64,000 nucleotides of DNA from Eledone cirrhosa (Eukaryota): assembly GCA_964016885.1 (NCBI GenBank), contig OZ024743.1, positions 201,686,001-201,750,000 on the forward strand. The letters are read 5' to 3'. Both the position numbers and the translations under genes were made by a program. Positions 4,474 to 8,692 of the stretch are shown here, piece by piece. The notes below the pieces were generated by a model. That model ran no database searches and was not told the DNA's origin. It worked only from the letters and a program-made list of their open reading frames with translations. How positions within the stretch are numbered: position 1 is the stretch's first letter; each line of letters begins with the position of its first letter.

Positions 4474-5469
4474 CCTGGAGACGAATGCTTAAACATAACT
4501 TACCCTTTATTCAGGGTGCGAAAATCCAGTATCAATAAATCTCTTTAATCCACTTTTTAACAATTTTATACTTTATTGCACTTTTATAATTTTCTTTAGG
4601 TATTACTCTTTATTTTATAATTTTAATTTAACCTGAAACCTATATAAACAAATCATTTAACATAAGCAAATTAAACTTATATACAATGTAAAATGAAGCA
4701 TACAAATAATTCTAGTGAATAGCTTAGAATTTTAACAAACCCAAACTTTTAACTATTTAATAGCACTTTTTTAAATTTATTAGGGACATAAGCAACACAA
4801 AAAAGTGATTACAAGCCAGGAACAGAGAATATTTTTTTTTATTTTACACGGTGTAATGCCCCAGCATCAATAATTGAATGAAGACCATTTGTTCAACATA
4901 TGGTATGTCTTGAAAGATATTGATTCTATGTTTATAGCTGTAAGGTGATGAGCTTATCTTATATAACCTCATCATTAGATTATACGGTGTATTTAACGAC
5001 TCCATCCTCATGAATGTCCGCATAATATGATTATACGACAGCAAGCTACGCATTAGGGATGCTCTACGCTGTTACTCAACCTACTAGAAATAGCATCCAA
5101 AACTCCCTACACCAAACCTCAACACACATACACACATTCTCACACAAGCACAGATACAATTTTAGGGAAAATTTACTTGCAATAATTAACAGTTCAACAG
5201 GACAATTAAAGAGTAATGTTAGCATATACTGTTGCTTGATTTTAGAGAAACAAAATATATACAATTTATTAAAAAATGTCTAATTATGAAAGATGAAGTA
5301 CATATATGTATGTATGTATATATATATATATATATATATATATATATATATATATATATATATATATATATATATATATATATATATATATATATATATA
5401 TATATATATATATATATAGAATAAGGAAAAGCGAAGTAGTTTCAGATGTTCAAGTCCTTTAATAATAAT

Positions 5470-5543
5470 GCTGTGATATATATTTCAGTGACGACACTGG
5501 CCACACTGTTCTGTGTGCGAGTGTCGTGTCATCATCAGACAGC
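5470..5543 (-). ncRNA. Type I hammerhead ribozyme, family A
   Basis: Reverse-complement copy of 6685-6758. Confidence 0.85.
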
Positions 5544-6684
5544 TTGTTACATAATAAGGTTGTTTCCGAGGCAATCCAAATTGAATCGATAATTTAGCTC
5601 CGATTAGTTGAGCGCTCTATGATGTAACCGATACGGTGGAGAAGAGAGGAACCAACTAAGAGCTACCCCGGAAATTCCCTCTACCATGGGGATGAAAACC
5701 CCTGACACTGGACGGGCGTAATAGTAACTTTCGGCAGGATAAATACGCGGAAACAAAAAATAAGATAAACCCCTATTTTCCTGCACCAAATCGCATTTGA
5801 ACAGAAGCCCCCTCAATTCAATCTATACATGGACAGATGGACAATCATATGGATCATTTTGCATATATGTACTCTGTGTTTTTGCATTTATTCACTATTG
5901 GTTCTGTTCTTTTCTTTTCTTTTGTGTACTTTATGTCTGTTTTTCTTTGATTTTGTTCCATGTGATAGAAATTATGACCGTGCAAACAGATTGACTAATG
6001 CCTTGAACCATGTAGTTTGCCCTCCGTTATAATGTACGGCACTGTCGTCCAATACGTGGATAGAGTAACTGTGACACTAGAATCCCTCTCAGAACTTATT
6101 ACTTAAACATCTCTCTCCATATTATTTACTCACTTCAATCTATATTTTTACTCAATCCGAATTATCACTTGAAAAATTTTTGAATTTAGAATTTTTGAAT
6201 TTTTAATTGTTTAATTTATAATCTCTGATATTCGATTTAGGATTTTAATTTTTATTTCCAACTCTCACTCTTAACTTACAATGTAAAACCATAGTACCTA
6301 GAATTAAGTTTATTTTCCCTTATCAGTTGATGGTCAGTCTTGCTGTCAACGCTTAGTGAAAGGTAGTATTATGACCTATAAAAACTGACACCCTCCCATC
6401 TCCTCTGGCTTTCGGCTGACTGCCACAGTAGTGATGGGTAGCAGTAAACTTTGGTAGGGCATAGGTGGGCCATTGTTTTGGCAGAGAGGGTGAACTGACA
6501 GCGAATTACTTTGAAATATGCGGTGGCTAATGGTCAACTTCCTTCGGACATGCGCTTGCGCAGACCGGTGGCGGTGAATTGGTACTCACAAGGGAACGGA
6601 TGAAAAACCCAAAAGCACGAACTTCATCCGTTCCCATGTCGATTCAATTTGGATTGCCTCGGAAACAACCTTATTATGTAACAA

Positions 6685-6758
6685 GCTGTCTGATGATGAC
6701 ACAACACTCGCACACAGAACAGTGTGGCGAGTGTCGTCACTGAAATATATATCACAGC
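6685..6758 (+). ncRNA. Type I hammerhead ribozyme, family A
   Basis: GCTGT-CTGATGA-[long stem II TGACAC..ACACTCGC..GCGAGTGTCGTCA]-GAAA-TATATA-TC-ACAGC; stem I GCTGT/ACAGC. Confidence 0.88.
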
Positions 6759-6948
6759 ATTATTATTAAAGGACTTGAACATCTGAAACTACTTCGCTTT
6801 TCCTTATTCGATATTTACTCAGTCACTCCTATGTGGAAAAAGTACTTTGAGTGCTTGAATTGAATTGCATCAATGTTTACCCTAATATATATATATATAT
6901 ATACACTGATATTAAATAAATGGAAAATTATATTTATAAAACCATATT

Positions 6949-7012
6949 TATTTTATTATATATATTTCAAGGGTACCAAGACAATATTGGTACGCTTTCA
7001 TCAGATAAAATA
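6949..7012 (-). ncRNA. Type I hammerhead ribozyme, family B
   Basis: Minus strand TATTTTAT-CTGATGA-AAGCGTACCAA tattgtc TTGGTACCCTT-GAAA-TATATA-TA-ATAAAATA. Confidence 0.88.
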
Positions 7013-7155
7013 CAAAGTTTGTTTTATAAATAGAGACGTACCCATGAAAATCACACCTCATCGGTTGGAAATTCACTGGAAATTCACTGGGTAGAATTTC
7101 CAACCGATAAGGTATGCTTTTCATGGGTACGTCTCTATTTATAAAACAAACTTTG

Positions 7156-7219
7156 TATTTTATCTGATGATAGCGTACAAATGTTGTCTTGGTACCCTTG
7201 AAATATATATAATAAAATA
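7156..7219 (+). ncRNA. Type I hammerhead ribozyme, family B
   Basis: TATTTTAT-CTGATGA-TAGCGTAC..GTACCCTT-GAAA-TATATA-TA-ATAAAATA; 8-bp stem I. Confidence 0.85.
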
Positions 7220-7547
7220 AATATGGTTTTATAAATATAGTTTTCCATTTATTTAATATCATTGAATATTTACTCCAGTAACTTGTTGAGTGCTCTAAAT
7301 CAGTTATAAACATTTATATTTGTCGGACTTCCAACAAATTAAATACCCCTTCTACTTATATATATATATATATATATATATATATATACACATAAATTTT
7401 GAGTATATGTTGGTTGTTTACCGACACCCTAGTATGCAGATTGGAGCACTTGACGAAGTACGCAGGTTGGTTTGGTTACTCCGGTGTAATGTAAAATAAA
7501 GTAATTAAGTCAAATATTTAAAATTTGGCTTCGTTTATTAAGTATGT

Positions 7548-7602
7548 ACTGCTGTATATATTTCGGTGACAGCCATCATTGGCTGTGACCTCTTCAGGCA
7601 GT
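7548..7602 (-). ncRNA. Type I hammerhead, family C, with a U16.1-to-C mutation
   Basis: ACTGC-CTGAAGA-GGTCACAGCCA atga TGGCTGTCACC-GAAA-TATATA-CA-GCAGT. Confidence 0.8.
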
Positions 7603-8480
7603 CCGAATTGGTGTGGTAGAGACAGGTACACATGTTGTTAAAGTGTTTTACTCCGTCAATACTCCGATATGTCCAGCTCCTGGTTGGGTTGTTATTTCTC
7701 TGAGGAACTGGAATCATATGAATTCGAACAAATGAATTTCGGCATCATAGGACACTCTCTCCTCCCATTGATCAGTTGTGAGAACATTCCTCAGCCAAAA
7801 GTCTATAGAAATCTTTTTCTGAGGCAAGACAATCTGTTGTGGTTGTTTTTGTTAAGTACAGCTGACCTCCTCCCTTGGGTTTATTGGTGTTAGGGGGTTA
7901 GCTGGCAGGTCAGCTTTAGTTCTACTGCTGCTGTCTTTAGAAGAATGAGTGTGTATGGGTTGGCATCAATCCTACCACCCTTTCACGTGGTGGGGGTTGC
8001 CCAACAGATAATGAAATAAGATAAAGTAAAATGAAGAAATAAAAAAATATATATATAATAAGATAAGATACAATAAAGAGAAGAAGCAAAGAAAAAAATA
8101 AATAAATAAAATAGAATAAAATGCATGTTTATTATAGCCAATATCAAATATCCAAGAAGAATAAAGTGCGTGTGTGTTACGATATTAAAGTTTGAAAGAT
8201 TTGGAAAATATTGACTGAAGTAAAAAAGTTGTGTCAGAATCGGGAAATGCAAAGGATTACTCAGAAAAAAATTTCCATAGACTTTTGACTGAGGAATGTT
8301 CTCACAACTGATCAATGGGAGGAGAGAGTGTCCTATGACGCCGAAATTCGTTTGTTCGAATTCATATGATTCCAGTTCCTCAGAGAAATAACAACCCAAC
8401 CAGGAGCTGGACATATCGGAGTATTGACGGAGTAAAACACTTTAACAACCTGTGTACCTGTCTCTACCACACCAATTCGG

Positions 8481-8535
8481 ACTGCCTGAAGAGGTCACAG
8501 CCAATGATGGCTGTCACCGAAATATATATACCAGT
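8481..8535 (+). ncRNA. Type I hammerhead, family C, with a mismatch in the first stem I pair
   Basis: ACTGC-CTGAAGA-stem II-GAAA-TATATA-TA-CCAGT. Confidence 0.8.
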
Positions 8536-8692
8536 ACATACTTAAACGAAGCCAAATTTTAAATATTTGACTTAATTACTTTATTTTATATATATATATA
8601 TATAGTAAAAAATTGAACGGGAACAAAACAGAGAGGCAGTACGAACAAAGGTTTATTAGTTTCATTCTCTTGAGAGTGGGGTGGTGGTGCAG

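Follow-up and report, generated by a model that had tools for sequence, protein, structure and literature searches.

In this study, we determined the nature of three hammerhead-bearing inverted repeats that lie in a row at 5419-8588 of a 64,000-nt stretch of the Eledone cirrhosa genome (3.0 Gb; contig OZ024743.1, positions 201,686,001 to 201,750,000). This whole stretch is called the window, and coordinates are positions within it. An earlier note on this DNA had proposed two origins for the repeats: inversion products of Penelope-like elements (PLEs), in which the arms are pseudo-long terminal repeat (pLTR) ends, or a non-autonomous class of fold-back ribozyme elements. We found that elements 1, 2, and 3 are most probably (about 0.85) three independent head-to-head insertions of Hydra-type PLE ends into one (TA)n microsatellite, each likely made by reverse transcription primed on both target strands, with two fixed sites inside a single RNA as the starting points. 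That all three are PLE insertions is hardly in doubt.

The arms of each element were nearly perfect complements: 98% for element 1 (5411-5589 and 6639-6817), 94% for element 2 (6896-7074 and 7094-7272, with 19 nt between), and 96.7% for element 3 (7492-7823 and 8260-8588). The reported picture of three consecutive inverted repeats with a minus-strand motif on the left, a plus-strand motif on the right, (TA)n junctions, and no real open reading frame (ORF) was confirmed, and the ORFs at 6951-7313 and 7986-8441 had no match in Pfam. The places given for the elements were about right, but the elements are larger and asymmetric. Comparison with other copies set their true extents at 5419-6884, 6904-7357, and 7393-8588, and each extends on a single side until it meets a (TA)n run. 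This extension, referred to as the tail, is 75, 93, and 99 nt long in elements 1, 2, and 3. The interval 5419-8588 consists of three insertions with nothing but (TA)n between them. Stacking was also observed elsewhere, since 8 of 87 arm-anchored loci had another of the three families (families 1, 2, and 3, named after the elements) within ~1.5 kb, and three of these cases were joined directly through (TA)n.

Families 2 and 3 were identified from copies in which the arms flank coding sequence. In one family 2 locus (L110), an arm at 5431-5709 of the locus is followed by frameshifted reverse transcriptase (RT) and GIY-YIG frames and then by an arm at 8885-9145, and L111 is alike. In family 3, one locus (L178) has an arm followed by an ORF start, RT, and endonuclease (EN), and another (L180) has RT and EN upstream of family 3 sequence. 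These frameshifted copies show the EN+ PLE layout, with RT plus GIY-YIG at the C terminus between pLTRs. The CxCX5C linker before GIY-YIG reads CNCRIKSNC in family 2 and CNCRNPALC in family 3. Family 2 has DKT within KSDKTNN, and RLRWRAF with RWR instead of RWK; a family 3 copy has RMRWRAF and a DKT decayed to D-stop-T. By eye, both families carry CKLC..E..N..CRH (CxxC, CxH), with only one Cys in the GIY-YIG core and no CCHH. Tandem and partial-tandem units giving direct or inverted pLTRs occur as in EN+ PLEs, the pLTRs contain a predicted type I hammerhead with palindromic helix III, and insertion is into (TA)n, as in the Hydra clade. As that clade of C-terminal EN+ PLEs is described (PMC8557442), it shares with our families CxCX5C, DKT, an RW-basic motif, CxxC and CxH flanking E and N, the lack of CCHH, a hammerhead, and (TA)n insertion, and it differs in having RWK rather than RWR and a length generally below 3 kb, against ~3.4 kb for the family 2 unit. 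Judged by these sequence features, families 2 and 3 represent the pLTRs at the ends of RT + GIY-YIG PLEs with Hydra-clade motifs. The first of the two proposed origins was upheld, since family 2 and 3 arms flank RT/GIY-YIG frames elsewhere and breakpoints differ between copies. Neptune was dropped as a candidate clade after the Hydra motif tests, and a fixed 1.9-kb unit for family 3 was abandoned because its boundary was a BLAST artefact; the copies continue into EN and RT.

The window also holds an apparently intact 830-codon Hydra-type PLE frame (21641-24133, plus strand) with RWR, DKT, YRDD, CxCX5C, and GIY-YIG-like motifs, to which the family 2 and 3 frames are 41-56% identical. It lies inside direct repeats of 2,363 bp (19180-21539 and 25349-27709); as these are 99.7% identical, the PLE is likely recent. 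A GTTGAGC motif is present ~30 nt before the ATG, and a hammerhead scan there found none. Atlas neighbour clusters of the frame carry HTH_animal, GIY-YIG, and RVT_1, which we treat as a lead only, and the 813-aa PLE-like protein of the window, used as a query against PDB sequences, matched nothing meaningful.

The outer ends of the insertions follow a near-absolute rule. Each family has two discrete 3' ends, one short and one long, and the sequence between them is the tail (75-99 nt in the three families). Loci were sampled as the 40 best-scoring candidates per search; first-look searches with arms or whole elements gave 1,584-2,622 candidates, which are lower bounds. The set comprised 95 distinct head-to-head junctions, with L019, L063, and L099 merged or missed by the counting script. 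Both ends were resolved in 80 junctions (the other 15 fall outside this count), and 79 of these joined one long end to one short end, one had two short ends, and none had two long ends. In loci that had not been selected for a tail, one tail was found in 40 of 41 (p = 2e-11 against the 50% ceiling under independence). An inverted 5'-truncated copy next to a pLTR and a one-sided tail are typical of PLEs, so that the head-to-head layout with one tail is, as such, already published (PMC8557442). The complex insertions of EN+ PLEs in that paper share with ours the head-to-head layout, the tail at one end, the pLTR hammerhead, the microsatellite target, the tandem units, and the non-autonomous members. 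They differ in tail length (30-40 nt there, 75-99 nt here), and a single tail is described there as occurring "often", compared with 79 of 80 here.

The two arms of one copy were closer to each other than to other copies. Minority alleles common to both arms numbered 24 against 2.5 in permuted data (22 loci), 11 against 2.4 (22 loci), and 13 against 4.6 (11 loci). In five loci (L154, L184, L187, L204, and L205), each of the two pieces held sequence that the other lacked.

A bipartite motif (T-A/T-A/G-CTCC-like, then GTYGAGYRCT) is present twice in all three families, ~1-7 nt behind the short and the long ends. When 11 cases were checked for a bulged hairpin, 8 had the full 4-bp stem, a 2-nt bulge, and a C-G pair, and 1 had a mismatch; an A-U/G-C exchange was seen between the two copies of the hairpin. 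The motif was also found in four further hammerhead families of the fetched loci. All three families share this motif as well as a helix II with C.C at the fourth position, so that the elements, described as unrelated in the earlier note, are not wholly so. In the literature outside subscription papers and bioRxiv supplements, coupled ends with paired hairpins in PLEs were not found in print, and nothing relevant beyond the papers cited was found on PLE twin priming, PLE RT structure, pLTR transcription starts, or octopus PLE hammerheads.

The inner ends also cluster. Among tail-anchored loci, forward pieces began at one narrow site in 8 of 30 for family 2 (q374-377), 8 of 30 for family 1 (q998-1006), and 6 of 30 for family 3 (q747-755). 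These boundaries are upstream of the hammerhead core, by ~80, 100, and 125 nt, respectively, each at the 5' foot of a predicted hairpin. An enzyme that stalls would be expected to halt at the 3' foot rather than there, and we therefore infer that the boundary is the 5' end of the RNA. Both arms of element 2 nearly reach this boundary.

Twin priming from two hairpin-marked sites on one RNA would explain how the insertions are laid out, why they have one tail, and why their arms share variants. The PLE protein would nick (TA)n on both strands, bind the two hairpins (it is a predicted dimer in an Anolis element), and prime one cDNA at each. Each cDNA would extend toward the RNA 5' end or stop early, and the two cDNA 3' ends would then be joined, often via 1-17 shared bases. 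If both cDNAs extended to the 5' end of the RNA, which would lie 80-125 nt upstream of the hammerhead, the product would be an almost perfect palindrome, as in element 2. It has been reported for the Anolis PLE in vitro that both target strands are cut and extended, that two internal start sites bound the tail, that RNA 3' of the start is required, and that the hammerhead is dispensable for insertion, a dimer being predicted (PMC11167929). This Poseidon element, PAc, resembles ours in the two start sites, the AT-rich target, and the cutting and extension of both strands. It differs in belonging to another clade and in its ORF, which starts inside the hammerhead rather than ~45-55 nt past the long end, and the cited account of PAc does not report the paired motif or the coupling of ends. 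Later steps of PLE transposition were called unvalidated by Craig et al. (PMC8557442) and Frangieh et al. (PMC11167929). On balance, we lean slightly toward twin priming, and in equal measure toward its strict form, in which obligatory twin priming on one RNA, by a two-subunit RT/EN at two bulged hairpins with head-to-head joining, causes both the inverted shape of PLE insertions and their one-sided tail.

An alternative with the same PLE origin is that one cDNA started at the long site snaps back and is copied, and that the intermediate is cut or resolved at the short site. Snap-back copying also explains why the arms share private variants and why there is exactly one tail, and the hot boundaries of families 2 and 1 have short inverted repeats (CACT/AGTG and a 13-bp stem, respectively). 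EN-mediated resolution of an intermediate was suggested for the tail by Craig et al. (PMC8557442). However, in many insertions (L027, L154, L204, and L205 among them), the inverted piece extends further 5' than the one with the tail, or the tail is on the inverted piece and absent from the main one, so that neither piece can be a simple copy of the other. The five loci whose pieces each hold unique sequence likewise fit snap-back poorly, unless their centres were deleted later. The same motif behind both ends and the extension of both strands from RNA in vitro (PMC11167929) also speak against it. We therefore regard snap-back as a rather unlikely source of the insertions.

Several points weigh against twin priming and the Hydra-type assignment. 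In the reported in vitro reactions, no difference in start site was seen when the top strand was compared with the bottom one, and coupling was not shown (PMC11167929). The shared arm variants could also arise from snap-back copying or from later arm-to-arm conversion, and asymmetric deletion at a palindrome centre could mimic pieces that each hold what the other lacks. In the window, the first hairpin copies of elements 1 and 3 are decayed, and the second hairpin of family 3 has one mismatch. The RNA 5' end is itself deduced from the boundary, and the samples hold only best-scoring candidates. The Pfam support for RT is weak: the family 2 and 3 frames matched GIY-YIG at E = 7e-4 and 2e-3 and RVT_1 at E = 0.024, below curated cut-offs. 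The Hydra clade was assigned by motifs, not by an RT tree. Finally, searches for an autonomous partner of family 1 with its 5' and 3' ends gave family 1 copies only.

Family 1 raises a further question, as its unit is 1,296 nt without an ORF; the longest stop-free frame has 87 codons, and there was no tblastn match. The units occur in exact head-to-tail tandems (L033/L044 and L032/L040) and show the same two-end pattern and signals as families 2 and 3, the short end being taken from comparison of copies, since the end-offset count gave nothing. By eye, the decayed start resembles the MEK..PLP of the partners. Three loci with EN or RT near family 1 were considered as partners and turned out to be neighbouring insertions. 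Family 1 could alternatively be a circular-RNA retrozyme, in which dimeric hammerheads cut tandem units that are circularised and then reverse-transcribed by a PLE protein. Its ORF-less unit, precise head-to-tail tandems, and type I hammerhead favor this, and animal retrozymes have been argued in print to be non-autonomous PLE derivatives (10.64898/2026.07.22.740005; PMC7229834). The likeness to animal non-LTR (long terminal repeat) retrozymes, including the probable dependence on PLEs, applies to family 1 only. However, its 1.3-kb monomer far exceeds the usual 150-450 bp given for retrozymes (PMC7229834), and it has PLE-type tail ends: the two PLE start sites, rather than the cleavage site of the hammerhead, are where insertions end. 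Most copies have a weak helix II base (TGA/ATT in 61 of 98), and the retrozyme explanation says nothing about elements 2 and 3. We consider it improbable.

Two other tandems were observed. L044 contains a 310-bp tandem (280 and 590, plus orientation) with a compact, canonical-looking hammerhead, in the usual size range of retrozymes. In the window, three tandem 665-bp units at 32441-34402 (plus strand) are 98-99% identical and have a type I hammerhead each (32705, 33370, and 34035); they may be retrozyme-like or a PLE pLTR array, and an EN-like frame follows at 34771-35550.

Miniature inverted-repeat transposable elements (MITEs) are short and ORF-less and have terminal inverted repeats. The three elements resemble them in these respects, and the second origin proposed would make them a non-autonomous class of fold-back ribozyme elements, which we considered as a MITE-like or retrozyme-like class replicating as an arm-spacer-arm unit. 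They differ from MITEs in that their arms are unequal retroelement 3' ends with variable junctions and there is no fixed unit, and their relatives encode RT, not transposase. If the whole unit replicated, its internal junctions should recur. Repeated breakpoint pairs were found in 0 of 41 family 1 and 0 of 22 family 3 junctions, and none of the 40 best candidates shared the junction of the window's element 1 or 3. In family 2, 9 of 32 were repeated (four pairs, all at one boundary). All 40 scored element 2 candidates matched the whole 355 nt, and three or four family 2 loci had the same centre, as a replicating unit would predict. However, the query that gave the full-length matches picks out palindromes. 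When an arm with its tail served as the query, full palindromes with both arms to the boundary made up only 5 of the 30 loci fetched, and the others were solo stumps, were inverted in part, or continued into the 3' untranslated region (UTR). Centres varied from copy to copy, and copies with the same centre carried different arm-shared variants. Long and short arms had no fixed difference (best Fisher p 0.23) of the kind expected from a palindromic master. The recurrence of family 2 palindromes comes solely from both arms stopping at a single hot boundary, and their centres vary. These results largely refute a self-copying fold-back class, which we consider very improbable. Breakpoints that differ between copies were what the earlier note itself had named as evidence against it, and the panhandle is predicted to abolish hammerhead folding. 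In the centre of one family 2 palindrome, upstream of L099:745 (contig C11, 33207121-33210330), a 19-nt piece of the 5' boundary is repeated in tandem about nine times, which resembles repeated template jumps at the RNA 5' end.

The hammerheads were examined with a strict type I scan (CTGANGA, GAAA, palindromic helix III, UH, helix I of at least 5 bp). In 5419-8588, it returned four motifs, in both arms of elements 1 and 2, compared with 0 in 1,000 Markov-1 resamples. An Rfam scan gave no hammerhead among 148 matches at E<=1, only chance microRNA matches on simple repeats. Every arm contains the motif, as had been claimed, but it is intact in only four of six. Both element 3 copies are damaged, the left by U16.1 to C and the right by a C.C mismatch at the first helix I pair. 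These lesions are private (each in 1 of 59 family arms), and 42 of 59 family arms are intact. The base of helix II in family 1 is weak (U.U, G-C, A.A, C.C in the hammerhead at 5470..5543), and the right arm of element 2 has U.U there and barely folds even alone (helix I pair probability ~0.03). In pair-probability folding, helix I was predicted to form in four of six isolated motifs. In the full fold-back transcript, its pair probability was 0.0 in all six strand/element cases, because the arms pair with each other in read-through transcripts of either strand. Cleavage and panhandle formation would thus be mutually exclusive, and the suggestion that a transcript is cut near its 3' end and forms a panhandle defeats itself. 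The hammerheads face outward because both outer ends are element 3' ends. Minimal metazoan hammerheads with palindromic helix III are reported as pLTR features of PLEs, weakly working as dimers (PMC4209133). In the present elements, the hammerheads would be passengers, predicted to be sequestered in any read-through transcript.

Table 1. Features of the three stacked insertions and the (TA)n runs around them (positions in the window).
Start	End	Strand	Feature
5300	5418		(TA)n target microsatellite left of element 1 (from sequence)
5419	5589	-	Element 1, inverted 5'-truncated 3' piece of family 1; ends at the short end; 1 shared base joins it to the unit start
5470	5543	-	Type I hammerhead motif of family 1; core intact, palindromic helix III
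5589	6884	+	Element 1, full 1,296-nt ORF-less family 1 unit; at its start, the second hairpin motif and a decayed sequence like MVEK..PLP
6586	6640	+	Hairpin; has at its 5' foot the hot spot where family 1 5' ends cluster (q998-1006), the likely RNA 5' end
6685	6758	+	Type I hammerhead motif of family 1, right copy
6810	6884	+	Element 1, one-sided tail, 75 nt, from short end to long end; degenerate first hairpin motif
6887	6903		(TA)n between elements 1 and 2
6904	7074	-	Element 2, pLTR piece of family 2, inverted; short end; intact hammerhead at 6949-7012
7075	7093		Centre of element 2; copy-specific junction that includes a short duplication and lies at the boundary of family 2, ~80 nt upstream of the hammerhead
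7094	7357	+	Element 2, pLTR piece of family 2; weakened hammerhead at 7156-7219; first hairpin motif in the 93-nt tail (7265-7357)
7358	7392		(TA)n between elements 2 and 3
7393	8260	-	Element 3, 5'-truncated 3' UTR/pLTR of family 3 PLE; tail 7393-7491 (99 nt); hammerhead 7548-7602, U16.1 to C
8260	8588	+	Element 3, 3' piece in inverted orientation; short end; helix I mismatch in the hammerhead at 8481-8535
8589	8605		(TA)n right of element 3

Other repeats were also noted in the window. A fourth retroelement (8607-11890, minus strand) adjoins element 3 across (TA)n. It has a 5'-truncated, frameshifted RT with YIDD and FLPKLHK motifs and a long CA-rich 3' part, matches Pfam RVT_1 only at E = 0.033, and is presumably Penelope/Poseidon-like. 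Two hammerhead motifs of other families (37516-37608, plus strand; 37857-37895, minus strand), with a short tail after each, stand tail to tail around (TA)n. A long inverted repeat at 30615-32070 has 656-bp arms (94.7%), pieces of which reappear at 12213-12453 and 36775-37038. A repeat resembling a short interspersed nuclear element forms a perfect head-to-head palindrome at 13637-13920; copies lie at 41779-41971, 52431-52628, and 62428-62624, and it is also nested in several family 1 copies. A 297-codon frame at 3598-4488 (minus strand) had no Pfam match, and we take it to be like a decayed DNA-transposon protein common in invertebrates.

The locus itself is ordinary, consisting of three dead insertions, two of them with damaged ribozymes. 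It cautions that a hammerhead-bearing palindrome that looks like a MITE in an animal genome can be a by-product of a retroelement. The near-absolute one-tail rule, the arms from the same template, and the paired motif make a step of PLE transposition accessible to a direct mutational test. If it is true, twin priming would answer how the second strand of a PLE is synthesized and why the tail is one-sided, and palindromes like element 2 would map the start of PLE transcription.

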